A DNA stretch of 64,000 nt, from the NCBI RefSeq assembly GCF_046119375.1, contig NW_027362767.1, forward strand, positions 389,174,001 through 389,238,000, written 5' to 3'. Numbering within the stretch: position 1 is the stretch's first letter; the number at the start of each line of letters is the position of its first letter. A program made the translations under genes and the position numbers. This document shows, one piece after another, positions 24,701 through 64,000 of this stretch. The stretch is from Phyllobates terribilis. Lineage: Eukaryota. The notes beneath the pieces are model-generated. The model made no database searches. It saw nothing but the letters and a program-made list of their open reading frames with translations, and had not been told where the DNA came from.

Positions 24701-26318
24701 GCAAGGATCACTTATGATGGGCACACTTTTAGGCAGTGACCTGGGTGTCAGAGATGCTTCCAGGGGTCTTCCCCATGCTGTTCCCATGTCTTTTCAGCAC
24801 TGTATGCATGTGTCACACAGCACATGGCCAGATAAGGTTGTAAAATATTAAAATGACATTTCCCGGTGAATGCATTTGTCATGGTTGAAAGCAATACAAA
24901 AGTGCAAAAACGCATAAAAAATGCTACTTGTGAACATAGCCCAAGGTGTGGAGGAGTATTTTTGTTTTTGGTTATTTATTTTACCTTATACATAAGTCTT
25001 TACCCTGGAAAGTATGTTCCTTAACATATTTCACAGGAAAGCAGTTTCAGTTTTGTTTTTGAACTTTTTATTGTGAGCCCGTAAAAGTGGCTTAATACCT
25101 CTGACCACGTTGTTGACAGCAGTGACCTGGGGGTCAGAAATGCTTCATGGGGTGATCGCACTGTCACTATCATTTTGGGCACTTTTTAGGCTTTCTACAG
25201 ACTGTCGGGGGTGCCGCTGCAAAAATGCTCGGGTCTCCCATAGACTAACATTGGGCTCGTTGCTTGGGTCGAGCACCCGAGTATCACGGTGAGCTCGGCC
25301 CGAGCTTCGAGCACCCGATCATTTTAGTGCTCGCTCAACACTACAAATGACCTTACATCAGATTCCCCTGTTTGGTTTTATAGTTATGGAATGAAGAATA
25401 CATTGTGTCACCACTTTCTTTGCTCATTGACACTGGATGTTACGGCAGTAGTAGAACAAATCAGCATTCCTGACTAGTTACGTATCATTTGGTATTTATT
25501 TCAATGGTTTATTCATTCTGTTGTCATTCTTTGAAATCCATATACACTGTACATACTGTAGTTACAGAGTTACTTGTGTAGCTTGTAAAAACAAGCTTGA
25601 TAAAGGTCAAACTGTAGGTGATTTTTAATTTTAAAGTAAAATTTGAAAATGTGAAAAGAAGCTTAATGGGGTTATCACTAGTGTTGAGCATTCCGATACT
25701 GAAATATCGGGTATCGGCCGATATTCACTGTATCGGAATTCCGATACTTAATTCCGATACTTTTATAATATCGAATACCGGAATCGGAAGTTCCCATAAT
25801 GCCTGCGCTCTCCAGTGTCTCTGAAGGATGACAAGCTGGATGGCAGCGCTCAGCTGCGATCCAGCTTGTCATCAGAATGCCATCCCAGCGTGGGAGAATT
25901 CTCCTGATTGTTTAAAAGCCGGCGCGCGGTAAAAAGCCGCCGGCTTTTAAACAATCACGCAGCCCCATACTGCTTCCCCGCAGCCTCCCACCCCGATCCT
26001 CCGCTCCCCTCGCCACCTCCCATCCCGATCGTAAATTAGGACCGGGCGGGGAGCGCAGCACCAAGGAGCGAAGGACCCGGGCGGGGAAGCCGGCAGTGAA
26101 AAGACTTCACCGCCGGCTTTCCCGTTCTGTGCTGCGCTTTCCCGCCGGTTATTTCAAATGAACAGCTGAGGTATCAGGTGATGCCGATCAGCTGTTCATT
26201 TGAAGTAGCCGCGGTGCCCTCAGAGGGTTCATGTGAGTTCATGCTTGACTGCATGAACTCACATCAACTTTCCCACGGCCGCACAGGTCAGCCTCACCTC
26301 CCGGACCCGTCATGATTA

Positions 26319-26437
26319 GTGTGTGCGGGGTGTGTGTGTGTGCGGGGTGTGTGTGCGGGGTGTGTGTGCGGGGTGTGTGTGCGGGGTGTGTGTGCGGGTG
26401 TGTGTGCGGGGTGTGTGTGTGCGGGTGTGTGTGCGGG
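26319..26437. repeat. (GT)nGCGGG microsatellite-like tract inside element A1
   Basis: Directly visible. Confidence 0.9.
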
Positions 26438-27227
26438 CAGACATAGGCCGATGTGACACTACTACTCCCATCGGCCTATGTCTGTCCCCCGTCCACTCCT
26501 GCCAGCAGGATCAGCTCGATGGGAGCAGTAGTTCCCATCAGCCTGATCCTGCTATTTAAATTGCCCTACTGTGTCCCCAATAAATGTTAGATACATGTCA
26601 TTGGTGGCCAGTGGTTACCTAAAAGAAATTAGTTCATACATTACCTGTCCCCGCCGATCGCCACCTAAAATAAAGTAAAAAATAAAAAACTACACCTATA
26701 CTCACCAAGACACCTAATTCCCCGAAGCCATCGATCTCCTGTAATAAAATATAAAATAATAAACCACAACCTTATCCTTACCCCTCCGTAGTAGTCCACG
26801 AGTGTCCCACGAAGATCTCCAGTTCAGAGCAGCCACATAGAATGTGACCGCTCTGAACCGCTGCCGCCGCTAGAATGACGGGGCCGTAAGGGTTCACCGG
26901 AGTTCAGGCAGCGCTGCTCCGGTTAGCTCCTTTACGGCACTGCTGTATCGTGAGAAATTCCCACGGTACAGCACTGCCGTAAAGGAGGTCTCCGGAGCTG
27001 CGCTGCCTGAATGCACTCCGGTGACCTCAGTCAGTGGCTCCCGCTGCCGGGAGCGGACGTGTTCCCGGCAGCGTGAGCTTACAGCAGCCATGCACAGCTG
27101 TCACCATCTCCAGATGTGACAGCTGTGCATGGGAGATCAGCGCAGGAACGTGGACAGGTAACTATTTTTTTTTTAGTAAACTAAGAATTAAATAAAATGG
27201 TGTTTTATTTCAAATAAATTATTTTTT

Positions 27228-27790
27228 TCTGGGTGTAGTGTGTTTTTTCTTTTTAACACTTTGTAGGTTAGTAATGGGGGTGTCATATAGACGGCCATCA
27301 TTACTAACCTGGGCTTCATGGCAGCTGGCGCTGACATGAACCCCACCACTATTACCCCCTGCCACCGCACCAGGGCAGCGTGGAAGAGCGAGGCTAAGTG
27401 CCAGAATTGGCGCATCCTATGGATGCGCCATTTCTGGGGCGGCTGACGGCTGGTGTTTCTAGCCTGGGAGGGGGCCAATATTCATGGCACCCTTCCTGAG
27501 CTATTAATATCAGCCCCCAGCTGTCTGCCTAGCCTTTGCTAGCTATTAAAATAGAGGGGACCCCACGTCATTTTTTTTTGGGGGGTCCCCCATTTTAATA
27601 GCTAGTAAAGGCTAGGTATTCAGCTGGGGGCTGATATTAGTAGCCTGGGAAGCTCCGTGGGTTTTACCCCCTTCCCAGGCTTCAAACATCTGCCCCAGCC
27701 GTCTGCTTAACCTCCGCTAGAGACTAAAATTATGGGGGATCCCACGCCATTTTTTTTTTAAATAAATCCTTTATTTTAACACTAAATGAC
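27228..27790 (+). repeat. About 560-bp internal direct repeat of element A1, copy 1
   Basis: Closely matches 32073-32642, from ggttagtaatgggggtgtc through aaataaatcctttattttaacactaaatgaca. Confidence 0.88.
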
Positions 27791-30709
27791 ATTTGAGGAC
27801 TTAATAAAGATGCAGTCCCTAAATTATTATTTATTTTTTAATAAATTTTTCCCAAAACTTTTGACGTGGGCTTCGCCATATTTTTGTATGCCAGCCAGGT
27901 ACAGCATCCAGCTTCTATGAACGCGCCATTTTCCGGGGCGGCCGCGGACTGCAATTTTCAGCGGGGGGGGGGAGGGCAAAAAGCTTGGGCCTCCCTGCGC
28001 TGCAGATTCCATCCCCCAGCTGCCTAGTTGTACCTGGCTGGACACAAAAATAGGGAGAAGCTCCACGTTTTTTTTTTTTTAATTATTTCATGAAATTCAT
28101 GGAATAATTAAGAAAAAAAGGGCTTCCCTATATTGTTGTGTCCGGCTAGGTACAAATAGGCAGCTGGTGGTTGGGGGCAACCCGTTCCTGCCTGCTGTAC
28201 CTGGCTGGACACAAATATAGTGTGAAGCCCCACGTCAATTTTTTTTTAATTATTTCAGGAAATTCATGAAATAATTAAAAAAAAATTATGTGGGGCTTCG
28301 CCCTATAATTGTGTCCAGCCAGGTACAGCAGGCAGGAACGGGCTGCCCCCAACCACCAGCTGCCTATTTGTACCTAGCCGGACACAACAATATAGGGAAG
28401 CCCTTTTTTCTTAATTATTCCATGAATTTCATGAAATAATTAAAAAAAAAAATGTGTGGCGCTTCGCCCTATTTTTGTGTCCAGCCAGGTACAACTAGGC
28501 AGCTGGGGGCTGGAATCTGCAGCGCAGGGAGACCCAAGCTTTCTGGGTCCCACCCGCTGCAAATTGCAGTCCGCAGCCGCCCCGGAAAATGGCGCGTTCA
28601 TAGAAGCGCCATCTTCTGGCGCTGTACCCAACTCATCCAGGGCCCTGGTGCGGTGGCTCACTGGGTAATAAAGGGGTTAAGGCCAGCTTGGCATTATCAG
28701 CTGGCCCTAAGCCCGAAATTCATGGGGTCACGCCAATATTAGACATGACCGCCATGAATTTCTAGTAAAGTATTTAAAAAAAACACAAACACCCAGAAAA
28801 AAGTCCTTTAATTGAAATAAAGACACAATTCTTTATTGTTCTAAATTAAACCATACTTACCGCCACACCCATTCCAGCTGAAGCCAACGATCTCCTGCAA
28901 TAAAAGTAAAATAATAAAGCAACCTCATCCTTACCTTTCCATGGTTCCCAGGACAGCTTCAGCTCTGCTACATCGAGATGACAGGCTGGACCGCAGCAGA
29001 ACGCTGCCATCCAGCCTGTCATCCCGCGGACACTGAGAAGCGCAGGCATGCTTGCGCTCCTCAGTGTCTTTCTGTGACGTCATCCAGATGAGCCGAGGTC
29101 ATGTCCAATGAACTCAGCTCACCTCATGCACGTCACTGACAGCGTGGGAAAATTCTCCTGCACTCAGCGCTTCAGCGTGAGAATTCTCCCACGCTGTCAG
29201 TGACGTGCATGAGGTGCGCCGAGTTCATGGGACATGACCTCACCTCATGCACGTCACTGACAGCGTGGGAAAATTCTCACGCTGAAGCGCTGAGTGCAGG
29301 AGAATTCTCCCACGCTGTCAGTGACGTACATGAGGTGAGCCGAGTTCATTGTCGGCTCATCTGGATGCCGTCACAGCCAGACACTGAGGAGTGGAAGTAT
29401 GCCTGCGCTTCTCAGTGTCTGCGGGATGACAGGCTGGATGGCAGCGTTCTGCTGCGGTCCAGCCTGTCATCTCGATGTAGCAGAGCTGGAGCCGTCGTGG
29501 GAGCCATGGAAAGGTAAGGATGAGGTTGCTTTATTATTTTTCTTTTATTGCAGGAGATCGTTGGCTTCAGCTGGAATGGGCGTGATGGTAAGTATGGTTT
29601 AATTTAGAACAATAAAGAATTGTGTGTTTATTTCAATTAAAGGACTTTTTTCTGGGTGTTTGTGTTTTTTTTAAATACTTTACTAGAAATTCATGGTGGT
29701 CATGTCTAATATTGGCGTGACCCCATGAATTTCGGGCTTAGGGCCAGCTGATAATGCCAAGCTGGCCTTAACCCCTTTATTACCCAGTGAGCCACCGCAT
29801 CAGGGCCCTGGATGAGTTGGGTACAGCGCCAGAAGATGGCGCTTCTATGAACGCGCCATTTTCCGGGGCGGCTGCGGACTGCAATTTGCAGCGGGTGGGG
29901 CCCAGAAAGCTTGGGCCTCCCTGCGCTGCAGATTCCAGCCCCCAGCTGCCTAGTTGTACCTGGCTGGACACAAAAATAGGGCGAAGCTCCACGTTTTTTT
30001 TTTTTTAAATTCATGAAATTCATGGAATAATTCAGAAAAAAAGGGCTTCCCTATATTGTTGTGTCCGGCTAGGTACAAATAGGCAGCTGGTGGTTGGGGG
30101 CAGCCCGTTCCTGCCTGCTGTACCTGACTGGACACAAATATAGGGCGAAGCCCCACATCAATTTTTTTAAATTATTTCATGAATTTCCTGAAATGATTTA
30201 AAAAAAATTGACATGGGGCTTCGCACTATATTTGTGTCCAGCCAGGTACAGCAGGCAGGAACGGGCTGCCCCCAACCACCAGCTGCCTATTTGTACCTGG
30301 TTGGACACAACAATATAGGGAAGCCCTTTTTTTCTTAATTATTTCATGAATTTCATGAAATAATTAAAAAAAAAAAATACGTGAAGCTTCTCCCTATTTT
30401 TGTGTCCAGCCAGGTACAACTAGGCAGCTGGGGGATGGAATCTGCAGCGCAGGGAGGCCCAAGCTTTCTGCCCCCCCCCTCCCCCCGCTGAAAATTGCAG
30501 TGCGCAGCCACCCCGGAAAATGGCGCGTTCATAGAAGCTGGATGCTGTACCTGGCTGGCATACAAAAATATGGCGAAGCCCACGTCAAAAGTTTTGGGAA
30601 AAATTAATTAAAAAATAAATAATAATTTAGGGACTGCATCTTTATTAACTCCTCAAATGTCATTTAGTGTTAAAATAAAGGACTTATTTTAAAAAAAATT
30701 GACGTGGGG
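27741..30709. repeat. About 3-kb near-perfect palindrome centred near 29225-29228
   Basis: Arm positions sum to about 58450: 27790 region vs 30660 region, 28452 vs 30000, 28800 vs 29650. Mirror ORFs 28846..29049(-) and 29399..29602(+). Central stem gtgacgtgcatgaggtg / cacctcatgcacgtcac. Confidence 0.92.
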
Positions 30710-31190
30710 CTTCGCCCTATATTTGTGTCCAGCCAGGTACAGCAGGCAGGAACAGGCTGCCCCCAACCACCAGCTGCCTATTTGTACCTGGTTGGACACA
30801 ACAATATAGGGAAGCCCTTTTTTTCTTAATTATTCCATGAATTTCATGAAATAATTTTAAAAAAAAATGCGTGGGGCTTCGCCCTATTTTTGTGCCCAGC
30901 CAGATACAACTAGGCAGCTGGGGGCTGGAATCCGCAGCGCAGGGAGACCCAAGCTTTCTGGGCCACCCCCGCTGCAAATTGCAGTCCGCAGCCGCCCCAG
31001 AAAATGGCGCGTTCATAGAAGCGCCATCTTCTGGCGCTGTACCCAACTCATCCAGGGCCCTGGTGCGGTGGCTCACTGGGTAATAAAGGGGTTAAGGCCA
31101 GCTTGGCATTATCAGCTGGCCCTAAGCCCAAAATTCATGGGGTCACGCCAATATTAGACATGACCACCATGAATTTCTAGTAAAGTATTT

Positions 31191-32094
31191 AAAAAAACAC
31201 AACACCCAGAAAAAAGTCCTTTAATTGAAATAAACACACAATTCTTTATTGTTCTAAATTAAACCATACTTACCACCACGCCCATTCCAGCTGAAGCCAA
31301 CGATCTCCTGCAATAAAAGTAAAATAATAAAGCAACCTCATCCTTACCTTTCCATGGTTCCCAGGACAGCTTCAGCTCTGCTACATCGAGATGACAGGCT
31401 GGACCGCAGCAGAACGCTGCCATCCATCCTGTCATCCCGCAGACACTGAGAAGCGCAGGCATACTTCCACTCCTCAGTGTCTGGCTGTGACGGCATCCAG
31501 ATGAGCCGAGGTCATGTCCAATGAACTCCGCTCACTTCATGTACGTCACTGACAGCGTGGGAAAATTCTCCTGCACTCAGCACTTCAGCGTGAGAATTTT
31601 CCCACGCTGTCAGTGACGTGCATGAGGTGAGCTGAGTTCATTGGACATGACCTCACCTCATGTATGTCACTGACAGCGTGGGAGAATTCTCACGCTGAAG
31701 CGCTGAGTGCAGGAGAATTTTCCCACGCTGTCAGTGACGTGCATGAGGTGAGCTGAGTTCATTGGACATGAACTCGGCTCATCTGGATGACATCACAGAG
31801 AGACACTGAGGAGCGCAAGCATGCCTGCGCTTCTCAGTGTCTGCGGGATGACAGGCTGGATGGCAGCTTTCTGCTGCGGTCCAGCCTGTCATCTCGATGT
31901 AGCAGAGCTGGAGCTGTCCTGGGAACCATCGAAAGGTAAGGATGAGGTTGCTTTATTATTTTTCTTTTATTGCAGGAGATCGTTGGCTTCAGCTGGAATG
32001 GGCGTGATGGTAAGTATGGTTTAATTTAGAACAATAAAGAATTGTGTCTTTATTTCAATTAAAGGACTTTATTCTGGGTGTTTGTGTTTTCTTT
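31191..32094. repeat. About 0.9-kb palindrome, second copy of the central palindrome module
   Basis: Mirror ORFs 31259..31462(-) and 31821..32024(+). The arms read as reverse complements around about 31641. Confidence 0.9.
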
Positions 32095-32642
32095 TAACTT
32101 TGACTATGGGGTTAGTAATGGGGGTGTCTTATAGACGCCTCTCCATTACTAACCTGGGCTTGATGTCAGCTGGCATTATAAGCTGACATCAACCCCAACC
32201 CTATTACCCCCTGCCACCGCACCAGGGCAGCGTGGAAGAGCGAGGCTAAGTGCCAGAATTGGCGCATCCTATGGATGCGCCATTTCTGGGGCGGCTGACG
32301 GCTGGTGTTTCTAGCCTGGGAGGGGGCCAATATTCATGGCACCCTTCCTGGGCTATTAATATCAGCCCCCAGCTGTCTGCCTAGCCTGTGCTAGCTATTA
32401 AATTAGGGGGGACCCCACGTCATTTTTTTGGGGGGGTCCCCCATTTTAATAGCTAGTAAAGGCTAGGTATTCAGCTGGGGGCTGATATTAGTAGCCTGGG
32501 AAGCTCCGTGGGTATTACCCCCTTCCCAGGCTTCAAACATTTGCCCCAGCTGTCTGCTTAACCTCCGCTAGAGCCTAAAATTAAGGGGAACCCCACGCCA
32601 ATTTTTTTTTAAATAAATCCTTTATTTTAACACTAAATGACA
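32073..32642 (+). repeat. About 560-bp internal direct repeat of element A1, copy 2
   Basis: Matches 27228-27790. Confidence 0.88.
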
Positions 32643-33552
32643 AGTACAGTAATCAACACTATCACTGTACTTCATATATATGTGACTGACATGTTTCTAT
32701 CTATCTAATCTATGTGTGATTCTCTATTCCTTCTATTCTAAATTGTCGGGTACAGATGCTGAATTGCCGGCCGGCTTTCTTAAAGAGACGGTGCATGAAA
32801 ACACTATTACTTTTTTAAATAAATCCTTTACACTAAATGACAAGTTCTGTAAGCAACACTGTCACTGTACTTCTTATATATGTGACTGACATGTTTCTAT
32901 CTATCTAATCTATGTGTGAAGCTCTATTCTGTCTGTTATAAATTGTCGGGTACAGATGCTGAATTGCCGGCCGGCTTTTTTAAAGAGACGGTGCACGAAA
33001 ACACTAATATTTTTTTTAATAAATCCTTTACACTAAATGACAAGTACAGTAAGCAACACTGTCACTGTACTTCTTATATATGTGGCTGACATGTTTCTAT
33101 CTATCTAATCTATGTGTGATTCTCTATTCCTTCTATTCTAAATTGTCGGGTACAGATGCTGAATTGCCGGCCGGCTTTCTTAAAGAGACGGTGCATGAAA
33201 ACACTATTATTTTTTTAAATAAATCCTTTACACTAAATGACAAGTTCTGTAAGCAACACTGTCACTGTACTTCTTATATATGTGACTGACATGTTTCTAT
33301 CTATCTAATCTATGTGTGAAGCTCTATTCTGTCTGTTATAAATTGTCGGGTACAGATGCTGAATTGCCGGCCGGCTTTTTTAAAGAGACGGTGCACGAAA
33401 ACACTAATATTTTTTTTAATAAATCCTTTACACTAAATGACAAGTACAGTAAGCAACACTGCCACTGTACTTCATATATATGTGACTGACATGTTTCTAT
33501 CTATCTAATCTATGTGTGAAGCTCTATTCTTTCTGTTGTAAATTGTCGGGTA
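32612..33552. repeat. 200-bp tandem array, about 4.7 copies, with alternating variants (400-bp dimer)
   Basis: aattgtcgggtac occurs at 32741, 32941, 33141, 33341 and 33541. The preceding sequence alternates ttctattcta / gtctgttata over the first four units. Confidence 0.95.
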
Positions 33553-33803
33553 CCGGTGAATGCCGCTGATGAATTGCCGGCTTTTCATGTCATTCTACAT
33601 TATTCTTAGTTGTTTTACTTCATGTAGAATTAACCTACAAGGAAAGAAAGGGTTTATTTTCATTCCGATATTTGTGTCCCATTGACTTGCATTGGTTTCC
33701 GGTATCGGAATCGGCGATATCCGATACTTTTTGGGTATCGGCCCGATCCAATCCGATACGATATTTCCTGATATCGGAAGGTATCGCTCAACACTAGTTA
33801 TCA

Positions 33804-34107
33804 CACAATCAAAAGTTCATTTTAATCAATAGATCTGAGAACCTCAATTTTAGTTTTGAAAATTTTGCTTAGCTGCTGTATATCATTAATATTTGGAAGT
33901 TAGATCTATGTCTTTTTTTTCTACAGTTATGTTACAATGTATTCTTCTTTCACTATTTTTCCTTTTTTTTCAATATGACACCAGCTAAACTGTACATTTA
34001 TATTGGGGCTTTAGGGAGATAGCCATCAGCCAAATGAGCATTCGGGCAACGGCTATCTCATGCGTATGGTCACCTTTTCTACATAAATTAGGATTGGAAT
34101 ACTTGGA
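33804..34107 (+). repeat. About 305-bp local direct duplication, copy 1 (copy 2 at 35345-35653)
   Basis: cacaatcaaaagttcatt...gaatacttgga is present twice with scattered substitutions and a short indel (ctgagaactgagaa in copy 2). Confidence 0.9.
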
Positions 34108-43587: not shown

Positions 43588-45399
43588 TTAATGTAAAGTT
43601 TGTCCACGTCATGAACACATTTCTTGTATTATTAGATTCGATTATTTCAGCCTTCAATTGTTTAATTTTGTATATGTGGATTTATGTATTGTGAATTCTC
43701 AGTACTGAATTCCAACAGATTTCTTAGAATTCATGTATTCCTTATTGTATTTCTTTTCTGCATTGCTGCTGTGTTACGTTGCTTGTGTACAGATATTTTC
43801 TTTTTTGCACGCAGTGCTATCCAATAACTCTTCAATCTCCAAGCTTTCTTATGGTAATAATAAAATTTTGTTTTGCATGACTGGACTTTTTTTTAACGCC
43901 CCTAAACGCTCTCAGAAGTACAGCTAATAGCAAAGCGAAATTTGTAAAAGGCAAAGTTCTCTAATTTTGAGCACATTAGCCATTTTCAGCAATAAACTCA
44001 CTGTGTTAAAAATTGAATTTTTTTTTATACCTTTGCCTGACAAAAAAAAAAATTCAAAATCTAGCTCGAAAATTTTCCTTAAAATTCCCAACTTTCTTCT
44101 GAAATAACAAGAATCATCATGATGTGAAACTTCATCAACAGAGTTCTCTTTGGTAAACATTCAAGTAGATTGTTCCCTAGATAATTCAACTTCTGACAAC
44201 TGTGAAACAGGATTAGTAGATTCAAATGTAATGTCCTTGTGAGGCCACTGGCTCAAAAGGCTGCCTTGGACAGACTTGGCACAAGCCACTCCATCTGGAA
44301 GATTCTAGAGAAATTCCAATATCCAATGACTCCTAACTGGTTTTACAATAGGGGACCCAGTAGAAAGCTACCATGGAAAGGCTGTCTTCCGAAGGCAAGT
44401 AAGGTTGCCAAGCATGGTCAGAGGGGGGTCTCTGCGCTGCAATACATTTCAGTTGAATGTGCTTCCTTGAAGCACATCAAGGTGAAATAGGCTCTGGCGT
44501 CAGCGGGCCACCCTCCCACATAGGCCTGGTCTCAGTCACACTATTAGGACCCTGAATCCTCCTATATTACAAAACTTTAATATAAATTATAAATGATGAC
44601 TAAGAAGCTAAGAATATCTGCTTTATATAATGTCATTTACATTTCACACCAAATTGAGTTTCTAATTTATTTCTGAGTTATTAACTATTTTTAATATTAA
44701 TTAGTTTCTGAATTATTAATTTATTTTTCTTCTTAGGAACCCTTGACATCCAGTGACTGTTGTACTGACATTCTTTGGAGAAAACAATTCAGAGGGCTTA
44801 GTTTCCATCTATACAGACATGTTCATCTTTTCTTGGGTGCTTTATATATTATGCACATTGGTAATTTCATTGAAGTTATTTGTGAATTACCCTCACAAAA
44901 AGACCTTAGTTGGAAATATAATTGGCTCCGAACCAACTTCAATTGGAGTTATTTTCTACTGGAGCCGGGAGGCGCATTATTGCACCAGGACCTGAACACT
45001 GGAGGACCCCCATGGTGGCTGAGTCTTACGATTAGTGTTGAGCGATACCTTCCGATATCGGGAAATATCGGATCGGATTGGATCAGACCGATACCCAAAA
45101 AGTATCGGATATCGCCGATTCCGATACCAGAAACAAATGCAAGTCAATGGGACAGAAATATCGGAATAAAAATAAACCCTTTCTTTCCTTGTAGGTTAAT
45201 TCTACATGAAGGAAAACAACTAAGAATAATGTAGAATGTATTGGGGGAGGTGGGGGAGACAATAAAGGCATAGACGTTTAGCCCAATCAAATGGAATAGC
45301 AGGAATTAATATTTTTTTGAAGACGTTCGGAGTCACGGAAATATTGACTATGTTAAGCTTTTTATATTTTGTCAGATATTTATGTTTCACTACTTCCAT

Positions 45400-45615
45400 G
45401 CTCTTCACCTTCTTTTTTACTTCTCCCACACCTTCTCCTTCATCATCCTCAGCATCAGCATCTTTTTCATCAACTTCTTCTTCACCTTCTTCATCTTCTT
45501 CTTCTTCACCTTCTTCGTATTATTCTTTTTTTTTACATTCTTCATATTCAACTATTATTCTTCTTCATATTCTACTTCTTCATCTTCTTCATATTCTTCT
45601 ACTTCATCATATTCT
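45400..45615. repeat. TTC/TCA/TAT-rich low-complexity tract
   Basis: Directly visible. Confidence 0.8.
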
Positions 45616-45954
45616 TATTTGTGACAGGCATTTCTGTAGTTGTTATCTATAAAAGTTTGAACATTACACCTTTTGTTCTGCCCGTCACAAAAGATTTACA
45701 ACAGGATTTGTCCGCGTTCAGTTTGGCCTGCAGCAGCAGGTCTTTTCCAGGGGCACCACGAGGAGGAACGGACTCACCCCCATACACTGCTTAGTCATCT
45801 TCTGCTTATAATTTAGATAATATCTTTTGCTCTGATTTTTAGTCTTATGCTTAATTTTCTTCTGCTTTTTGTTCTGCAGCTTCTTGTACTTCAGCTTCTT
45901 GGTTTTCTGTCTCTTGTTCTTCTGTATCTTGGTGGTTGTTTTCTTGTTCTTTGT

Positions 45955-46340
45955 CCTCTTCGTCAACTTCTTCAGGGTCATCTTCTTGGTCTTCTTCGGG
46001 GTGGTCTTCAGGGTCGTCGTCTTCAGGGTCGTTGTCTTCGGGGTCCTCATCTTCTTCGGGGTGGTCTTCAGGGTCCTTGTCTTCAGGGTCGTTGTCTTCG
46101 GGGTCCTCGTCTTCTTCGGGGTGGTCTTCAGCGTCCTCGTGTTCAGGGTCGTCGTCTTCGGGGTCCTCGTCTTCTTCGGGGTGGTCTTCAGGGTCGTCGT
46201 TTTCAGGGTTGTCGTCTTCAGGGTCCTCGTCTTCTTCGGGGTGGTCTTCAGGGTCCTCGTCTTCAGGGTCGTCATCTTCGGGGTCCTCGTCTTCTTCAGG
46301 TTGGTCTTCAGGGTCCTCGTCTTCAGGGTCCTCGTCAGGG
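45955..46340. repeat. 60-bp tandem repeat (4 x 15-bp subunits), about 6 copies
   Basis: cttcttc(g/a)gg(g/t)tggtcttca recurs at 45991, 46051, 46111, 46171, 46231 and 46291. The minus strand reads (EDPEDDDPEDEDPEDHPEED)n. Confidence 0.92.
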
Positions 46341-46394
46341 AGATCCTGAGTGATTACCAAGAACCATTTCAAAAAGCTTGAACTTGGAAATGTA

Positions 46395-47210
46395 GCAGAA
46401 GGTACAAGAAGGCTGAGGAGCTGCCGAGCACCAGCTGATGGTACTGGAACCCGGATGGGTAGCAGAAGGTACAAGAGCCAATGGAACTGCGGAGGACCAG
46501 CTGACGGTACTGGAACTCGGTTACTAAGCAGGAGGTACCTGTGCCAGAAAGTACTACCAAGGACCAGCAGATGTTTGTGGAACTTGGATACCGAGGAGGA
46601 GGCACCTAAGCCAAAGGCACTGTCGAGAACCAGCTGACGGTACTGGAACCCGGATGGGTAGCAGAAGGTACAAGAGCCAATGGAACTACCGAGGAACAGC
46701 TTACGGTACTGGAACTCAGTTACTAAGCAGGAGGTACCTGTGCCAGAAAGCACTACCAAGGACCAGCAGACATTGGTGGAACTTGGATACTGAGAAGGAG
46801 GCACCTAAGCCAAAGGCACTGCCGAGAACCAGCTCACGGTACTGGAACCCGGATGGGTAGTAGAAGGTACAAGAGCAAATGGAACTACCGATGACCAGCT
46901 GACGGTACTGGAACCCGGATGGGTAGCAGAAGGTACAAGAGCCAATGGAACTACCGAGGACCAGCTGACGGTACTGGAACTCGGTTACTAAGCAGGAGGT
47001 ACCTGTGCCAGAAAGCACTACCAAGGACCAGCAGACGTTGGTGGAACTTGGATACTGAGAAGGAGGCACCTAAGCCAAAGGCACTGCCGAGAACCAGCTG
47101 AAGGTACTGGAACCCGGATGGGTAGTAGAAGGTACAAGAGCAAATGGAACTACCGAGGACCAGCTGACGGTACTGGAAACCGGATGGGTAGCAGAAGGTA
47201 CCCATGTAAA
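46395..47210. repeat. Composite tandem array of 66-bp and 133-bp units (199-bp composite)
   Basis: The core ccagctgacggtactggaac occurs, with a few variant bases, at 46431, 46497, 46630, 46696, 46829, 46895, 46961, 47094 and 47160. Spacings are 66,133,66,133,66,66,133,66. Confidence 0.92.
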
Positions 47211-47426
47211 AAAAGGTTGCAAGGCCGTGAGCCGGCCGCAGTTACCAAAGCCCACAGTCCTACAGGGGGTGCTTGTCCTATTGGCACTATGGAACCAGCC
47301 TTCATTGCCAGATCCCGCAGCCCACATAGGAGTCACCTAAACTGCAGACACCATAGAGTCAGCTAACCTGACCGCAACACGACAGGACAATGCATTGGAG
47401 GCAAAGTGACATTGACACTACCCGGA

Positions 47427-49480
47427 AACAGCTGACGTGCTGGAACCAGGCTGGGCAGGAGGGAGTACCCGTGCCAAAGACACTGCTGGGAAACAGCTGG
47501 CGGTGCTGGAACCCAGGGTAAATACTAAAAACAGAGTGGAGCCAGAGGCGTAATTGGAGCTACTTTAAAATCTGTAGTAGTGTGAATGTGGACAGAGCAG
47601 GAGAATTTGCCGGACACACAGCAGGGGAACAGCTGACGTTACTGAACCCAAATAACACTGGAGCAAGCGTTGACTGTGCAGATGGCACTTCTGAGCAGCA
47701 ACTAGCGGTATTGGAGCCCAGGGTAAATACTAAAAACAGAGGAGCCAGAGGTGTAATTGGAGCAAGTTTTAAATCAGTAGTACAGTGGATGTGGACAAAG
47801 CAGGAAAATTTGCCGGACACACAGCTGGGGATCAGCTGACATTACTGAACCCCAATAACACTGGAGCAAGCGTTGACTGTGCAGACGGCACTTCTGAGCA
47901 GCAATAGCGGTATTGGAGCCCAGGGTAAATACTAAAAACAGAGGAGCCAGAGGTGTAATTGGAGCAAGTTTTAAATCAGTAGTACAATGGATGTGGACAA
48001 AGCAGGAGAATTTGCCGGACACACAGCTGGGGATCAGCTGACGTTACTGAACCCCAATAACACAGGAGCAAGCGTTGACTGTGCAGACGGCACTTCTGAG
48101 CAGCAACTAGCGGTATTGGATCCCAGGGATAATACTAAAAACAGAGGAGCCAGAGGTGTAATTGGAGCAAGTTTTAAATCAGTAGTACAGTGGATGTGGA
48201 CAAAGCAGGAGAATTTGCCGGACACACAGCTGGGAATCAGCTGACGTTACTGAACCCCAATAACACTGGAGCAAGCGTTGACTGTGCAAACGGCACTTCT
48301 GAGCAGCAACTAGCGGTATTGGATCCCAGGAATAATACTAAAAACAGAGGAGCCAGAGGTGTAATTGGAGCAAGTTTTAAATCAGTAGTACAGTGGATGT
48401 GGACAAAGCAGGAGAATTTGCCGGACACACAGCTGGGGATCAGCTGACGTTACTGAACCCCAATAACACTGGAGCAAGCGTTGACTGTGCAGACGGCACT
48501 TCTGAGCAGCAACTAGCGGTATTGGAGCCAAGGGATAATACTAAAAACAGAGGAGCCAGAGGTGTAATTGGAGCAAGTTTTAAATCAGTAGTACAGTGGA
48601 TGTGGACAAAGCAGGAGAATTTGCCGGACACACAGCTGGGGATCAGCTGACGTTACTGAACCCCAATAACACTGGAGCAAGAATTGACTGTGCAGACAGC
48701 ACTTCTGAGCAGCAACTAGCGGTATTGGAGCCCAGGGTAAATACTGAAAACAGAGGAGCCAGAGGTGTAATTGGAGCAAGTTTTAAATCAGTAGTACAGT
48801 GGATGTGGACAAAGCAGGAGAATTTGCCGGACACACAGCTGGGGATCAGCTGACGTTACTGAACCCCAATAACACTGGAGCAAGCGTTGACTGTGCAGAC
48901 GGCACTTCTGAGCAGCAACTAGCAGTATTGGAGCCCAGGGTAAATACTGAAAACAGAGGAGCCAGAGGTGTAATTGGAGAAAGTTTTAAATCAGTAGTAC
49001 AGTGGATGTGGACAAAGCAGGAGAATTTGCCGGACACACAGCTGGGGATCAGCTGACGTTACTGAACCCCAATAACACGGCAGCAAGTGTTGACTGTGCA
49101 GACAGCACTTCTGAGCACCAACTGGCGGTGTTGGAGCTCAGGGATAATACTGAAAACAGAGGAGCCAGAGGTGTAATTGGAGCAACTTTAAAATCTGTAG
49201 TAGTGTGAATGTGGACAGAGCAGGAGAAATTGCCGTCCGCACAGCAGGGGAACAGCTGACGTTACTGATCCCCAATAACACGGCAGCCAGTGTTGACTGT
49301 GCAGACAGCACTTCTGAGCTCCAACTGGCGGTGTTGGAGCTCAGGGATATTACTGAAAACAGAGGAGCCAGAGGTGTAATTGGAGCAACTTTAAAATCTG
49401 TAGTAGTGTGAATGTGGACAGAGCAGGAGAAATTGCCATCCGCACAGCAGGGGAACAGCTGACGTTACTGAACCCCAACC
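47427..49480. repeat. 203-bp tandem array, about 10 copies
   Basis: Near-identical ORFs recur every 203 bp (47987, 48190, 48393, 48596, 48799, 49002, 49205, 49408). Confidence 0.95.
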
Positions 49481-49912
49481 AGACGTGGCTGAAGCACACA
49501 CTACGGCGTGAGCTGCACTCACACACAGAGACCTTGCAGACAGGCGTGAACTGCAGAGCACTGTGCACTAGCGCTGCAAGACAAAAAAAAAATTCTCTAT
49601 CTACTCCTATATAGTGTGTTTGGATCCAATTTAGCTGAATACAGATGGAACAACCACACTAATAGGAGATATCAGGAAAAATTATGAATTAGCAAAAAAG
49701 GACAATGTATGAGGCAGTGACACACACTGAGCGCACTACAACCAGACGTGGATGAAGCAGTGAACAGCACAGAGAACTGTGCACTAGCGCTGCAAGGCAC
49801 AGCGATTTATAAAGTAGCTTGGGTAAAGCAGAATAGACCAAATAGGTAGCTAAAACTGTCCCTCAGAATAACAGCGTCCTATCCCTAACTGAATTCACAG
49901 CAGAGTGAGCTC

Positions 49913-50040
49913 AAAATGGCGGCGGCTTTTATAGTGCGTCATGACATCATTTCAGCAGCCAATCACAGCCATGCCATTAGTTAACATGCCTACATGCCTA
50001 ACAGGATGTGCCCACACTTCTTAGGATCCTCATTGGCTGA
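49913..50040 (-). promoter_or_regulatory. Putative inward-facing Pol II promoter of element C
   Basis: On the minus strand: CCAAT (about 50036-50032), an inverted CCAAT (49959-63), TGACG, TATAAAA (49933-49927) and a YY1-like GCCGCCATTTT (49923-49913), in promoter order. Motif match only. Confidence 0.4.
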
Positions 50041-51789
50041 ATAAAATGAAACTGGCTCATTGCATTATGGGAACTTCCGATTCCGGTATACGATATTGCA
50101 AAAGTATCGGAATTAATATCGGAATTCCGATACCGCGAATATCGGCCGATACCCGATATTTCAGTATCGGAATGTTCAACACTACTTACGATGTATCTAG
50201 TACTAATATGCTTTTCATTATTTGCTATGTACAGTAAAAACAAGATGCTAAATTATTTTTGTCATGTCATCCCCTGCTTTGTCTAGTAGAAACCAACTGA
50301 TTCTAACTTTTTCCCTCTTCTGATGATGATTGCCAACAGTCCTCGTGGTGTTAGTTATGGTAGCTGGAGTTTACATTGGAACTAGGGATGAATGAATAAG
50401 TTTGTAAAACCCAGGTCCAATGGCCACAACAGCTTTCCTTATCTGTTGGACGGGAGCCTTGTGAACAGCCTACTTCTTACTGAAATTTTTCGATTGCTAA
50501 ATGAATGCCATATGGATGACAATACAGGTGCAAAGTCATCGTGTTTGAAAATTAAATTACTTTTTATATATGGTGGTGTGAAATTAGCATTAAAGGGGTA
50601 TAGTAGCCAGAAGATTTAAGCATCTATCTACTGGGTAGATAAAAAATGCCTCATTGATAAATCTGATGACTGGGACTAAAAATGATCCCCATCCCTCCTT
50701 CTCCGAGCTGTAAGCTTTAAGTTAGTCGGACCCCACTGATTTAATAGTTATAAGTGGATACATGACAAATGTTTATGGCTGGAATACCATTTTAACATGT
50801 ACTGTTAAACTCCATCTGAACGCGGAAACAATGGCTTCCTATAACATTTCAGGTATTTCCCACAATATAAGAATTCTTAGAATTAGGATTTTTAGGATTA
50901 ACTTTCTATTCAATGAACTACATATATACACTGAACACAGTAAGAAGAGACGCTGAGATGAAGATAAGAAGAATAGAGTTTCGCACCTGATCAGCTATGG
51001 GATATAACATGCGTGAGGAGTAATACAGTATTCTCCATGACTTCTCCGGATTCACATTCTGTGAAGGAATGAATCTAATATTTCAGAGCTTGTTAAAGGA
51101 AAAGTATTCATACTGGGTTGCAATCTCCCTAAAAGGTCTGGACTGCTCCAAGGTTGAAAATCACTTAAAGATCCAAACTCAAACACTTTATGACTTTACA
51201 CTGGACTTCTGACATGTGTTAGAGGGAAATCTCCATTCTACATTTATTGATATGTGTAGAAAGGGAAGTTCTCACCTCTCCAGCCATAAGACGTCTTTTA
51301 CTTGTAGATCAGATTGTAGTATTTTCTTAAAAGGGGGGATTCAATCTAAGATTCACATTACATGTTACTACATAAGAGTAGACTTATTTAACAACATTGG
51401 TCTCTGCATGAAGCCTCCCTACATAATAATACTTTTAGTATGGGACAATTTTTCATCTTTGTTCTTTTATTTTTTCCCTTGGAATATAGAGCAAGGAAAA
51501 AGAGAGAGCACCAGGTATCCAGCGGATCTTCATTAAAATATAGCTTTTATTAGAAACATATAAAAGCAGCCATGTCACAAGGACAACACACGGAGTACTA
51601 ATCCACAGAGCATGGTAGTCCGGGTGATTACTAACGGGTGAGCTGATATTTTTTCCCTCTCCCTCTTCCCGTTTATTTTTTCCCACCCTTCTTCCAAGAG
51701 CCATATATTTTTTATATTTCCATCAACATAGCTGATGTTTTTTTTTCTTTTTTTAAGGATGAGCTGCAGTTTTGAAGTACACTATACAC

Positions 51790-52620: not shown

Positions 52621-53229
52621 GGGTTGAAAGCTTGCCAAATCCCCTAATCATAGCAGGATTATTCAACAACTATTGTATATGGGGTGTTCCCAACAGACGG
52701 GGTCCTCTGAGAGGAGATGTTGGGGGAGAGACGGGTCAGACAGATTCAATTATTTGGCCTGATCCTTTAAAAACTGCAGATAGAGGTGTCCATATGAATG
52801 GTATATAGTAGATTCAGAGAAGGCAGCTATTAACCTATATTTATTTAAGTTGTTCGCGAATAGAGATGAGCGGTGTTCGACTCGAACTGTTCGCCAATCT
52901 CAAATTCGAGCTGCTTTGGGCGGTGTTCGAGCCGTTCGGCGAACACGAACGATTTGAAAAAAATTCGGCTGTTCGAGGTTATGTTCGATAACTGTTCGTG
53001 CACCAAAATCATAACTGGATTTTTTTTCAGTAATGCTGAAAATTAATGTTAATACGCAGTTTGAGTGTACAGCGGGGTGGGGGAAGGGTAGGGGATGGAT
53101 CTCTGCAGGAATAATGAAGATCTCCATTTTTTTTTCTCTTTCCCGCATTTACAGTGGGGAGGTGCAATCTGTCAGCCTATCAACAGCGCACACACGGAGC
53201 GAAGTGCTTTTTTTCACACAAGCAAGGGC

Positions 53230-53305
53230 ATGTGTCATTGGCAGTGTATGTCACATGTCCTTGCCCTATAAGACCCAGCCATTTTCCCAGTCGCCACCAT
53301 TTTCT
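53230..53305 (+). promoter_or_regulatory. Putative promoter of hAT element D
   Basis: Inverted CCAAT (cattgg, 53236), ctataag (53266) and two YY1-like ccatttt motifs upstream of the transposase ATG. Motif match only. Confidence 0.3.
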
Positions 53306-54058: not shown

Positions 54059-54175
54059 AACGCAGCCAATACTTTTGGCCTAATACCACAGTTTGGCCTC
54101 TCAGCTCTGCTCGGTTCCCATCCATTGTTTTTTTGTGCAAACAACTCCAGAGTTGTGAATTAGTTAACCACCAAA

Positions 54176-59116: not shown

Positions 59117-59349
59117 TAGTGTTGAGCGATACCTTCCGATATCAGGAAATATTGTATCGGATTGGATCGGACCGATACCCAAAAAGTATCGGATATCGCC
59201 GATTCCGATACCGGAAACCAATGCAAGTCAATGGGACACAAATATCGGAATGAAAATAAACCCTTTCTTTCCTTGTAGGTTAATTCTACATGAAGTAAAA
59301 CAACTAAGAATAATGTAGAATGTATTACGCGAAAAGCCGGCAATTCAGC

Positions 59350-59905
59350 AGCGGCATACAACGGTACCCGACAATTTACAACAGTAAGAATAGAGCTTCA
59401 CACATAGATTAGATAGATAGAAACATGTAAGTCACATATATATGAAGTACAGTGACAGTGTTGCTTACTGTACTTGTCATTTAGTGTAAAAGATTTATTT
59501 AAAAAAATAATTGTGTTTTCATGCACTGTCTCTTTAAAAAAGCCGGCCGGCAATTCAGCTGCGGTACCCGACAATTTATAACAGACACAATAGAGCTTCA
59601 CACATAGATTAGATAGATAGAAACATGTCAGTCACATATATATGAAGTACAGTGACAGTGTTGCTTACTGAACTTGTCATTTAGTGTAAAGGATTTATTT
59701 AAAAATATAATAGTGTTTTCATGCACCGTCTCTTTAAAAAAGCCGGCCGGCAATTCAGCATCTGTACCCGACAATTTAGAATAGAAGGAATAGAGAATCA
59801 CACATAGATTAGATAGATAGAAACATGTCAGTCACATATATATGAAGTACAGTGACAGTGTTGATTACTGTACTTGTCATTTAGTGTTAAAATAAAGGAT
59901 TTATT
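59350..59905. repeat. 200-bp tandem array of A2, about 2.7 copies
   Basis: cccgacaattta occurs at 59367, 59567 and 59767. Confidence 0.92.
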
Positions 59906-60422
59906 AAAAAAAAAAATTGGCGTGGGGTTCCCCATAATTTTAGTCTCTAGCGGAGGTTAAGCAGATGGCTGAGGCAGATGTTTGAAGCCTGGGAAGGGGG
60001 TAATACCCACGGAGCTTCCCAGGCTACTAATATCAGCCCCCAGCTGAATACCTAGCCCTTACTAGCTATTAAAATGGGGGACCCCCTCAAAAAAATGACG
60101 TGGGGTCCCCCCTAATTTAATAGCTAGCAAAGGCTAGGCAGACAGCTGGGGGCTGATATTAATAGCCCAGGAAGGTTGCCATGAATATTGCCCCCCTCCC
60201 AGGCTAGAAACACCAGCCGTCAGCCGCCCCAGAAATGGCGCATCCATAGGATGCGCCAATTCTGGCACTTAGCCTCGCTCTTCCCACTGCCCTGTAGCGG
60301 TGGCAGTGGGGTAATAGGGTTGGGGTTGATGTCAGCTTATAATGCCAGCTGACATCAAGCCCAGGTTAGTAATGGAGAGGCGTCTATAAGACACCCCCAT
60401 TACTAACCCCATAGTCAAAGTT

Positions 60423-61332
60423 AAAAAAAAAAACACAAACACCCAGAATAAAGTCCTTTAATTGAAATAAACACACAATTCTTTATTGTTCTAAATTAAA
60501 CTCTACTTACCATCACGCCCATTCCAGCTGAAGCCAGCGATCTCCTGCAATAAAAGAAAAATAATAAACCAACCTCATCCTTACCTTTCCATGGTTCCCA
60601 GGACAGCTTCAGCTCTGCTACATCGAGATGACAGGCTGGACCGCAGCAGAACGCTGCCATCCAGCCTGTCATCCCGCAGACACTGAGAAGCGCAGGCATG
60701 CTTGCGCTCCTCAGTGTCTCTCTGTGACGGCATCCAGATGAGCCGAGTTCATGTCCAATGAACTCAGCTCACCTCATGCACGTCACTGACAGTGTGGGAG
60801 AATTCTCCTGCACTCAGCGCTTCAGCGTGAGAATTTTCCCACGCTGTCAGTGACGTGCATGAGGTGAGCTGAGTTCATTGGACATGACCTCACCTCATTC
60901 ACGTCACTGACAGCGTGGGAAAATTCTCACGCTGAAGCGCTGAGTGCAGGAGAAGTTTCCAACGCTGTCAGTGACGTGCATGAGGTGAGCCGAGTTCATT
61001 GGACATGACCTCGGCTCGTCTGGATGCCGTCACAGAGAGACACTGAGGAGCGCAAGCATGCCTGCGCTTCTCAGTGTCTGCGGGATGACAGGCTGGATGG
61101 CAGCGTTCTGCTGCGGTCCAGCCTGTAATCTCGATGTAGCAGAGCTGAAGCTGTCGTGGGAACCATGGAAAGGTAAGGATGAGGTTGCTTTATTATTTTT
61201 CTTTTATTGCAGGAGATCGTTGGCTTCAGCTGGAATGGGCGTGATGGTAAGTATGGTTTAATTTAGAACAATAAAGAATTGTGTGTTTATTTCAATTAAA
61301 GGACTTTTTTCTGGGTGTTGTGTTTTTTTTAA
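60423..61332. repeat. About 0.9-kb palindrome of A2
   Basis: Mirror ORFs 60496..60699(-) and 61058..61261(+); centre about 60878. Confidence 0.9.
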
Positions 61333-64000
61333 ATACTTTACTAGAAATTCATGGTGGTCATGTCTAATATTGGCGTGACCCCATGAATTTCGGGCTTAGG
61401 GCCAGCTGATAATGCCAAGCTGGCCTTAACCCCTTTATTACCCAGTGAGCCACCGCACCAGGGCCCTGGATGAGTTGGGTACAGCGCCAGAAGATGGCGC
61501 TTCTATGAACGCGCCATTTTCCGGGGTGGCTGCGGACTGCAATTTGCAGCGGGTGGGGCCCAGAAAGCTTGGGCCTCCCTGCGCTGCGGATTCCAGCCCC
61601 CAGCTGCCTAGTTGTACCTGGCTGGACACAAAAATAGGGCGAAGCCCCACGTATTTTTTTTTTAAATTATTTCAGGAAATTCATGAAATAATTAAGAAAA
61701 AAAGGGCTTCCCTATATTGTTGTGTCCAACCAGGTACAAATAGGCAGCTGGTGGTTGGGGGCAGCCCGTTCCTGCCTGCTGTACCTGGCTGGACACAAAT
61801 ATAGTGCGAAGCTCCACGTCAATTTTTTTTTAATTATTTCATGTAATAATTTTTTAAAAAAAGGGCTTCCCTATATTGTTTTGTCCGGCCAGGTACAAAT
61901 AGGCAGCTGGTGGTTGGGCGCAGCCCGTTCCTGCCTGCTGTACCTGGCTGGACACAAATATAGGGCGAAGCCCCACATCAATTTTTTTTTAATTATTTCA
62001 TGAATTTCCTGAAATAATTAAAAAAAAATTGACGTGGGGCTTCGCACTATATTTGTGTCCAGCCAGGTACAGCAGGCAGGAACGGGCTGCGCCCAACTAC
62101 CAGCTGCCTATTTGTACCTGGCCGGACACAACAATATAGGTAAGCCCTTTTTTTCTTTATTATTTCATGAATTTAATGAAATAATTAAAAAAAAAATACG
62201 TGGGGCTTCTCCCTATTTGTGTGTCCAGCCAGGTACAACTAGGCAGCTGGGGGATGGAATCTGCAGCGCAGGGAGGCCCAAGCTTTCTGCCCCCCCCCCA
62301 GGTGCAAATTGCAATCCGCAGCCACCCCGGAAAATGGCGCGTTCATAGAAGCTGGATGCTGTACCTGGCTGGCATACAAAAATATGGCAAAGCCCACGTC
62401 AAAATTTTTGGGAAAAATTAATTAAAAAATAAATAATAATTTAGGGACTGCTTCTTTATTAACTCCTCAAATGTTATTTAGTGTTAAAATAAAGGAGTTA
62501 TTTAAAAAAAAATTGGCGTGGGATCCCCCATAATTTTAGGCTCTAGCGGAGGTTAAGCAGACGGCTGGGGCAGATGTTTGAAGCCTGGGAAGTGGGTAAT
62601 ACCCACAGAGCTTCCCAGACTACTAATATCAGCCCCCAGCTGAATACCTAGCCTTTACTAGCTATTAAAATGGGGGACCCCCCCCAAAAAATGATGTGGG
62701 GTAGCCCCTATTTAATAGCTAGCAAAGGCTAGGCAGACAGCTGGGGGCTGATATTAATAGCCCAGGAAGGGTGCCATGAATTTTGGCCCCCTCCCAGGCT
62801 AGAAACACCAGCCGTCAACCGCCCCAGAAATGGCGCATCCATAGGATGCGCCAATTCTGGCGCTTAGCCTCGCTCTTCCACGCTGCCCTGGTGCGGTGAC
62901 AGGGGGTAATAGGGTTGGGGTTCATGTCAGCGCCAGCTGCCATGAAGCCCAGGTTAGTAATGATGGGCGTCTATAAGACACCCCCATTACTAACCTACAA
63001 AGTGTTAAAAAGAAAAAACACACTACACCCAGAAAAAAAATAATTTATTTGAAATAAAACACACAATTTTATTTAATTCTTAGTTTACTAAAAAAAAATA
63101 GTTACCTGTCCACGTTCCTGCGCTGATCTCCCATGCACAGCTGTCACATCTGGAGATGGTGACAGCTGTGCATGGCTGCTGTAAGCTCACGCTGCCGGGA
63201 ACACGTCCGCTCCCGGCAGCGGGAGCCACTGACTGAGGTCACCGGAGTGCATTCAGGCAGCGCAGCTCCGGAGACCTCCTTTACGGCACTGCTGTACCGT
63301 GGGAATTTCTCACGATACAGCAGGGCCGTAAAGGAGCTAACCGGAGGAGCGCTGCCTGAACTCCGGCGAACCCGCTTATGCAATGACGGGGCTGCTTTAC
63401 GGCCCCATCATTCTAGCGGCGGCAGCGGTTCAGAGTGGTCACATTCTATGTGGCTGCTCTAAACTGGAGATCTTCGTGGGACACTCGTGGACTACTACGG
63501 AGGGGTAAGGATATGGTTGTGGTTTATTATTTTATATTTTATTACAGGAGATCGATGGCTTCAGGGAATTAGGTGTCTAGGTGAGTATAGGTGTAGTTTT
63601 TTATTTTTTACTTTATTTTAGGTGGCGATCGGCGGGGACAGGTAATGTATAAACTAATTTATTGTAGGCAACCACTGGCCACCAATGACATGTATTTAAA
63701 ATTTATTGGGGACACAGTAGGGCAATTTAAATAGCAGGATCAGGCTGATGGGAACTACTGCTCCCATCAAGCTGATCCTGCTGGCACGAGTGGACCGGGG
63801 ACAGACATAGGCCGATGGGAGTAGTAGTGTCACATCGGCCTATGTCTGCCTGCACACACACACCCGCAGACATCGCACAGACACCGCACACACCCGCAGA
63901 CATCGCACAGACACCGCACACACTCGCAGACATCGCACAGACACCGCGCACACCCGCAGACATCGCAGACATCGCACAGACACCGCACACACCCGCAGAC

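Follow-up and report, generated by a model that had tools for sequence, protein, structure and literature searches.

What kind of transposable element spans more than eight kilobases, consists largely of nested palindromes, carries no gene and is still copied as a whole? The question is raised by a 64,000-nucleotide stretch of the 10.6 Gb Phyllobates terribilis genome assembly (GCF_046119375.1, contig NW_027362767.1, positions 389,174,001 to 389,238,000; hereafter the window, whose own coordinates are used throughout), in which an element of 8,118 bp occupies positions 25679-33796. Here we report that this element is an ends-only non-autonomous hAT of the Ac family, that its 8-kb form transposes as one unit and has undergone a recent burst, and that one cargo, the palindromic interior, is present between the ends of three hAT families. 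The overall reading that we favour, and hold with good confidence, is that of a gene-less hAT which has the ends of an autonomous partner, is copied whole, likely by the transposase of that partner, and likely received its filling from another hAT by nesting and deletion.

The element begins and ends with a perfect 11-bp terminal inverted repeat (TIR; TAGTGTTGAGC at 25679-25689, its complement at 33786-33796) inside a perfect 8-bp target-site duplication (TSD), exactly where a first-pass annotation, made from the sequence alone, had placed clean termini around 8.1 kb of DNA. Its ends are held in common with an autonomous hAT family, referred to below as the partner:

25671..25678, unstranded: left target-site duplication, GTTATCAC
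25679..25802, + strand: left end in common with the autonomous hAT, the 11-bp TIR followed by ATCGG/CCGAT-rich subterminal repeats
33591..33796, + strand: right end in common with the autonomous hAT, the TIR at its terminus
33797..33804, unstranded: right target-site duplication, GTTATCAC

The words ATCGG and CCGAT occur eight times in each end versus six times across the 7.8 kb of interior. When set against three partner copies with an intact open reading frame (ORF), 118 of 124 bases are identical in the left end and 198-199 of 206 in the right, that is, 95-97% identity. Between the ends a tblastn search with the partner transposase gave zero matches and the longest stop-to-stop frame measures 125 amino acids (aa), in agreement with the earlier statement that there is no trace of a transposase. 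None of the 40 Rfam matches to the element reached the gathering score and 39 of them were to microRNA models; we attribute these matches to hairpin shape and reject a hidden ORF or RNA gene.

The left end defines a large family (family A): its first 40 nt have 10,208 exact matches in the genome, compared with none for the reversed control. Our family samples are the first matches on one contig, in this case the first 60 left-end matches on contig C1, of which 31 lead into the palindromic interior and 29 into the interior of the partner. Complete copies make up 28 of the 31 palindromic ones, with lengths of 2,462-8,087 bp and TSDs that are perfect in 25 cases, differ by one mismatch in two and are apparently shifted by one base in one. 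The 29 partner-type copies share only their first 71-124 bp and, where reached, their last 206 bp with the window element, whose overlap with the autonomous family is limited to 124 + 206 bp of ends.

The partner is a family of 9-10 kb elements encoding a transposase of 1,130 aa. An unbroken ORF of 1,126-1,130 aa is retained by 10 of the 29 sampled copies, these intact ORFs differ by 0.45% on average, and the family is young. The protein contains a zf-BED domain (PF02892) and the hAT dimerisation domain (PF05699), aligns to Hermes (E 4e-16) and includes the motifs LTTDAW, VVCDNG, CLAH, TRWNS and LSERVFS, to which we presume D-D-E/CxxH-type catalytic roles belong. Among named proteins it is closest to anuran ones that carry a ZBED4/6-like annotation (Ranitomeya variabilis, 87-88% over residues 400-800). 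The sampled TSDs have T at position 2 in 48 of 60 cases and A at position 7 in 50 of 60, and nTnnnnAn is the signature of the Ac family in the available part of PMC8961557. Membership of the hAT Ac family is indicated by the 8-bp TSD with this signature, the short TIR with subterminal repeats, and a transposase with BED, D-D-E/CxxH and dimerisation regions. As a side observation, partner copies (45033-50184 in the window, L027, L037 and others) hold tandem arrays with units of ~269, 203, 66 and 15/30 bp; array copy number determines element length, from 6.6 to >10 kb, and the acidic 'EDPED' frames of the partner are by-products of these arrays. Three frog gene models (P0002, P0015 and P0034) join a partner-type transposase to KRAB or to host genes (MINDY-3, a receptor phosphatase), and represent either exonisation or annotation errors.

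Because the window element combines these ends and nTnnnnAn TSDs with an unrelated interior, it is an ends-only non-autonomous Ac-family hAT; Ds1-type elements are likewise 'ends-only' derivatives. The label of non-coding hAT in the first-pass annotation is borne out. We rejected a classical Ds-type deletion derivative of the partner, since blastn of the interior against three of three complete partner copies found zero matches and the tblastn search was also empty. The MITE (miniature inverted-repeat transposable element) class was rejected as well: MITEs are short (under about 1 kb) and uniform in length, and the 28 complete copies are neither. Shared ends and matching youth lead us to infer that the partner transposase would be the enzyme that mobilises the element.

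What lies between these ends is a set of repeats inverted upon each other; of the 8,118 bases, 5,798 are matched by an inverted counterpart elsewhere in the element:

25803..27190, + strand: left interior, almost restricted to copies with family-A ends
27191..27791, + strand: direct repeat D, copy 1
27741..30708, unstranded: imperfect palindrome of 3 kb, centred near 29225, with 94.7% identity between its arms
27911..28607, unstranded: inner palindrome P1, 92.5%, ~167-bp units
28440..30008, unstranded: core palindrome P2, 121-bp hairpin units at its centre (29118-29349)
29841..30538, unstranded: P1', the inverted copy of P1
30680..30710, + strand: switch-back junction from the inverted arm to forward sequence in mid-P1, with an imperfect A-run/ACGTGGG microhomology
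30689..32090, + strand: direct repeat, 95%, of 28275-29668 (half of P1 plus P2)
32033..32642, + strand: direct repeat D, copy 2
32630..33553, + strand: 200-bp tandem array, 4.6 copies, the number differing among young copies

The left interior contains small hairpins (26146-26211 and 26894-27024) and a variable GT-rich array (26319-26437). The two D copies are 91-94% alike; the first includes a 74% palindrome at 27440-27701, and D is 67% related to the outer arm of P2. The arms of the 3-kb palindrome mismatch at ~5% (117 differing positions) and include 23 stretches of 21 bp or more that pair perfectly, up to a maximum of 102 bp, with a centre that folds as a long stem; the longest inverted match in 20 dinucleotide-model shuffles was 17 bp. 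Arm identity differs between modules (D 74%, P1 92%, P2 93-96%). The first-pass annotation had described the 3-kb palindrome, the direct repeats flanking the palindromic core and the 200-bp array, all of which we recovered at the positions listed. It had correctly noticed an inner palindrome but drawn it too short, at about 28070-28450 rather than 27911-28607 with its mirror image at 29841-30538. The second 0.9-kb palindrome that it reported is present (31182-32101, 93%) but is not a separate structure: given the direct repetition of 28275-29668 at 30689-32090, it duplicates the core of the 3-kb palindrome.

Compared with a 5.3-kb relative (L009), the window copy runs forward over positions 1-4003, backwards over ~3113-2094 and forward again over 2610-5310, an alignment that marks the 8-kb form as an apparent inverted-triplication derivative of a 4.5-6 kb family. 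We initially took the 3-kb palindrome to be unique to the window copy (0 of the 18 first relatives had it), a view overturned by 2,217 genome-wide matches to the switch-back junction pattern. The variant letter of the window copy is present in 41 of the first 100 junction matches, which implies ~900 copies of the 8-kb form, and the five young 8-kb copies in the left-end sample of 60, which are 0.23-0.38% from the window copy, imply ~850. Twenty stretches with the variant junction reduced to 18 distinct sites, each with a perfect TSD of its own; the full 2.95-2.97 kb palindrome is present at 14 and rearranged at four, in a sample whose selection by junction favours intact copies. Adding the five left-end copies (four intact) and the window copy gives 24 young sites, 19 with an intact 3-kb palindrome and five rearranged.

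The 19 intact copies lie on average 0.11% from their majority sequence, and the identical differences at 117 arm positions recur in them. Set against so small a divergence, these mismatches must be older than the burst and have been carried along by copying, and their recurrence in 19 copies with different TSDs rules out a fold-back artefact for the family. The 8-kb form transposes as one unit and has done so in a recent burst. The first-pass annotation had proposed both that the element moves as a unit and that copies with two termini and a TSD be compared; each of the 24 sites is marked by a perfect TSD of its own, and 19 of them keep the palindrome. Two older 8-kb relatives, 2.5-3.0% from the window copy, and two 5.6-6.1 kb forms (L034 and L040) with the identical junction and a 1-kb palindrome indicate that the 8-kb structure was probably assembled in steps. 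In trees of three modules the right half of the 8-kb form clusters with the 5.6-6.1 kb forms L034, L040 and L042, suggesting a mosaic of copies; the triplication probably arose by template switching at hairpins, or else by recombination between copies.

Some young copies are unusual in themselves. At G000:C1:151280938-151299115 (L148/L149) two 8,170-bp copies adjoin, both with the TSD GTCATCAG, through either tandem duplication or double insertion. A young copy of ~10.9 kb at G000:C1:151343747-151356486 (L150/L151, TSD GTTAACAA) has an extra internal block of 2.74 kb and two junctions, so the interior is still expanding. Near-identical copies that share a flank or TSD while lying on different contigs or at different positions were also seen elsewhere (L009, L010 and L011; L012 and L016; L007 and L008) and are likely segmental or haplotype duplicates rather than independent insertions.

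Long palindromes posed a stability paradox in the first-pass annotation, which survives in a softer form. Instability is real, as about a fifth of the young copies (5 of 24) are rearranged, and the structure can be described as unstable yet outpaced by transposition; on the other hand, arm mismatches reduce palindrome instability, and here they reach 5% with no perfect run beyond 102 bp. Conversion between arms amounts to four events against about one expected at diagnostic sites, and is inseparable from conversion by other copies. The long double-stranded RNA (dsRNA) that the annotation foresaw is plausible, with a weak hint in its favour. Two putative RNA runs have 16 and 17 A>G places over 29900-31200 versus nine and eight in two DNA runs, and six clustered A>G sites at 31020-31050 reach 13-46% versus 0-2.6%, all in data that come at most sites from one contig per run, from one study and from other individuals, the RNA nature of the runs being a guess. 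The cluster hints at ADAR editing of fold-back dsRNA.

Where did the interior come from? Loci picked by an interior module alone often have ends other than those of family A. Of 20 sampled copies of family B (left end TAGTGATGAGCGAGCATGCTCG, 1,945 exact matches), 19 have the cargo adjoining their left end, seven of these being complete with TSDs; the twentieth, L118, is the sole B copy with a transposase, which is decayed. Family C has the ends TAGAGATGAGCGGTG...GGTGGCTCAACACTA, the left one with 16,711 exact matches. Exact matches to a 24-nt motif of the cargo number 31,046 in the genome, and 20 such loci, chosen away from the ends fetched earlier, included nine complete C elements with TSDs, one C element cut by the edge, four A-ended elements and one B element. 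Family-A ends show no alignment to those of B or C, and the remnants of B- and C-type transposases are mostly 36-54% identical to the transposase of family A. One cargo is present between the ends of three hAT families, in forms of 2.5-8 kb with deletions and inversions among copies; some B and C copies (L096, L120 and L124) are near-whole palindromes. Rough extrapolation from the samples gives at least 14,000 cargo-bearing elements (~5,300 A, ~1,850 B and at least 6,700 C).

Several copies have the appearance of intermediates. L093-L095 each have an intact, cargo-bearing B left end 183 bp into a C left end; in C cargo elements, C base ~152 is joined straight to B base ~117 with the B TIR gone; and scraps of the B junction lie beside A ends in five copies (L004, L005, L006, L018 and L056). 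In midpoint-rooted, weakly supported trees the A and C cargo segments are intermixed and the B segments long-branched. The simplest reading that these junctions suggest makes B the donor, its cargo being handed over through nesting and deletion and later exchanged between families. No host source of the interior was found, none of our genome-wide searches having been aimed at one; the matches were to repeats or to loci with no recognised ends.

The window itself holds two further relatives of the element:

45033..50184, - strand: copy of the autonomous-type partner shortened by internal deletion; it has these same ends and the TSD CTTACGAT, is free of palindromes and has lost its transposase
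59117..63971, - strand: older sibling of the window element, 92-95%, with a shorter interior and without the 3-kb palindrome

The sibling has lost its family-A left end and is nested between B ends with the TSD GTCAGAAC, the surrounding B element running from 58766 to just beyond the window. The same insertion of A into B, with the A left end intact, is found in L003. An A element occupies the same B-element site, TCCTTAAC, in L003, L132 and the window (58766-59116) with differing outer flanks, which suggests that the nested composite was itself mobilised as a whole. A family-B right end at 25221-25343 terminates ~335 bp upstream of the 8-kb element. A family-C remnant (52861-58765, left end TAGAGATGAGCGGTG), which encodes a BED-finger transposase 36% identical to that of family A, is interrupted at 58766 by the B-ended composite. 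The window also contains a Tc1-type transposase ORF of 323 aa stop to stop (39214-40185, - strand; HTH_Tnp_Tc3_2, DDE_3) and, at 1-23794, a satellite array that extends over at least 23.8 kb, with a ~52-bp unit, Tandem Repeats Finder periods of 104 and 156, and strong strand skew.

In the mechanism that we propose, the partner transposase would bind the subterminal repeats and mobilise anything between such ends, the interior being passive cargo. Both C and A would have obtained the cargo from B: a B element that carries it would insert close to the end of another hAT, and a subsequent deletion would strip the TIR of B, leaving the cargo under new ends. Switching of templates at hairpins during replication, or recombination between copies, could build the forward-backward-forward form, which transposition would multiply; the long palindrome would persist through its 5% arm mismatch and the recency of the burst, and read-through transcripts would fold as long dsRNA and undergo editing.

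A number of observations weigh against this account. The ends of the window element are 4-5% off those of intact partner copies, and the window copy has no B scrap at all. Among the sampled copies a whole B element was never found inside an A element, the nesting seen for A being the reverse (A inside B in the window sibling, L003 and L132). Five of the 20 cargo-motif loci have no recognised ends, the cargo trees are short, weakly supported and unrooted, and L118, the decayed B copy, is only 86% and 76% like the ends of non-autonomous B elements. The A>G cluster could derive from any copy of the cargo, in runs that are only presumed to be RNA.

Other readings grant the interior a more active part. 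The boldest, a long shot in our estimation, would see a hyper-parasite: a self-rearranging palindromic cargo without termini of its own, which crosses at least three hAT families by nesting and deletion, outlives its hosts, is favoured by its hairpins and yields edited dsRNA from thousands of loci. A selfish passenger, whose hairpins aid copying or capture or lift the transposition rate so that selection spread the interior over three families, strikes us as rather improbable. It draws on the presence of the cargo in three end-families with 31,046 motif matches, on how often it forms the interior in the samples (19 of 20 for B, 31 of 60 for A) and on the extreme youth of the biggest and most palindromic A form; yet founder luck gives such spread without any advantage, and interiors that vary from 2.5 to 8 kb by free deletion and inversion do not require a fixed structure. 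Also in its favour, 29 substitutions fall in the 56,408 bases within the 3-kb palindrome, fewer than the 100 in 57,936 bases beyond it, and four of the 29 are changes to the base of the partner arm; however, three recombinant copies account for 43 of the 100 outside, and the changes to the partner base may equally stem from other copies.

We give little credence to a pile of small, once-independent palindromic MITEs, nested in each other and then frozen within hAT ends. Hairpin modules of several ages (the arm identities given above) and the precedent of Angel within Tol2 (bioRxiv 2026.01.12.699174, seen in part) speak for it, but the modules are interrelated, the 67% likeness of D to the P2 arm fitting internal duplication, and 40 module-centred loci were mostly multi-module blocks whose TIR/TSD pairs, in a scan restricted to hAT-type ends, were those of A, B or C. 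A fold-back artefact of sequencing or assembly, or a one-off local rearrangement, may be dismissed almost entirely: the window locus is covered by short contigs only, with no single independent read or contig across it, but assembly fold-back is rejected for the family by the inherited arm mismatches at separate sites, the junction matches number 2,217, and independent DNA runs contain 89-95% of the words sampled from 29900-31200.

Taken as a gene-less hAT moved from its ends, the element requires no new transposition mechanism. Its intermediates document how a non-autonomous transposon can switch its mobilising family without fresh capture of host DNA, and its young copies offer a natural, countable test of the lifetime of imperfect palindromes in the vertebrate germline. 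With at least 14,000 elements by extrapolation, the cargo may be a sizeable source of endogenous dsRNA. The partner looks like an active hAT moving 8-10 kb, which would make it of interest as a vector.

Among known systems the closest are hobo_AC and the orphan hAT-N elements of Anolis carolinensis, described in the available part of PMC3014272 as non-autonomous elements of 1.3-3.4 kb with extraneous interiors and an autonomous partner. Like the window element, hobo_AC is multi-kilobase, exchanges ends and interiors by recombination between elements and includes copies that share only ends with the partner (PMC3014272, in part). With these precedents, and with an ordinary autonomous partner sharing its ends, the suggestion of an undescribed element class in the first-pass annotation cannot be sustained. 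In contrast to the window element, the Anolis filler is debris of retroelements and DNA elements, swapped between two groups of one family (PMC3014272, in part), and the string 'palindrom' has no occurrence in the main text of that paper; in the frog the filler consists of nested palindromes of up to 8 kb and is found across three families with non-aligning ends. As in Hermes, hobo, Ac/Ds and Tol2, there is an 8-bp nTnnnnAn TSD (PMC8961557, in part), short TIRs, subterminal repeats and a partner with BED, DDE and dimerisation regions, but the non-coding interior is far larger than in other Ac-family hATs. Tol2, likewise a hAT of vertebrates, has an internal inverted repeat and transposes with it (bioRxiv 10.64898/2026.01.12.699174, in part). 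Its Angel repeat, termed unique among hATs in the portion of that preprint at hand, has ~0.3 kb per arm and stems from one MITE insertion in an autonomous element, whereas the window element is non-autonomous with nested arms of up to 1.5 kb.

The FB, Galileo and Tetris foldback elements resemble ours in being non-autonomous and modular, with many rearranged forms and with long inverted repeats that contain tandem arrays (PMC4079207, in part). In foldbacks, however, the long inverted repeats are terminal, and most of these elements are related to Mutator or P (PMC4079207, in part), whereas the window element has an 11-bp TIR, otherwise dissimilar ends and a hAT enzyme. We rejected the foldback class because the TIR is 11 bp and the long inverted repeats are internal, the modular interior being the trait that agrees. 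Multicopy Pack-TIR elements, under the FoSTeST model, also gain foreign DNA by template switching and multiply it by transposition, as in Pack-hAT-N8_XT of Xenopus, but what they carry is host sequence, unique and present in few copies (PMC8277862, in part), whereas our cargo is a non-coding repeat in thousands. The forward-inverted-forward layout, with junctions at short inverted repeats or microhomology, is that of origin-dependent inverted-repeat amplification (ODIRA) and of rearrangements of the DUP-TRP/INV-DUP (duplication-triplication/inversion-duplication) type (PMC10766183, in part); ODIRA is known from chromosomal segments (PMC10766183, in part), whereas here the layout lies within a mobile element and was amplified by transposition. 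The available parts of PMC11152451, PMC12676858, PMC6431247 and PMC3310237 describe no such element, and our literature search, which lay outside the repeat-library supplements of frog papers, found no description of this family or of a cargo common to non-aligning hAT ends. The class of mechanism is therefore already known, and what sets the frog element apart is the size and nesting of its palindromes, an inverted triplication that transposes as a unit, and the apparent hand-over of one cargo across three hAT families.

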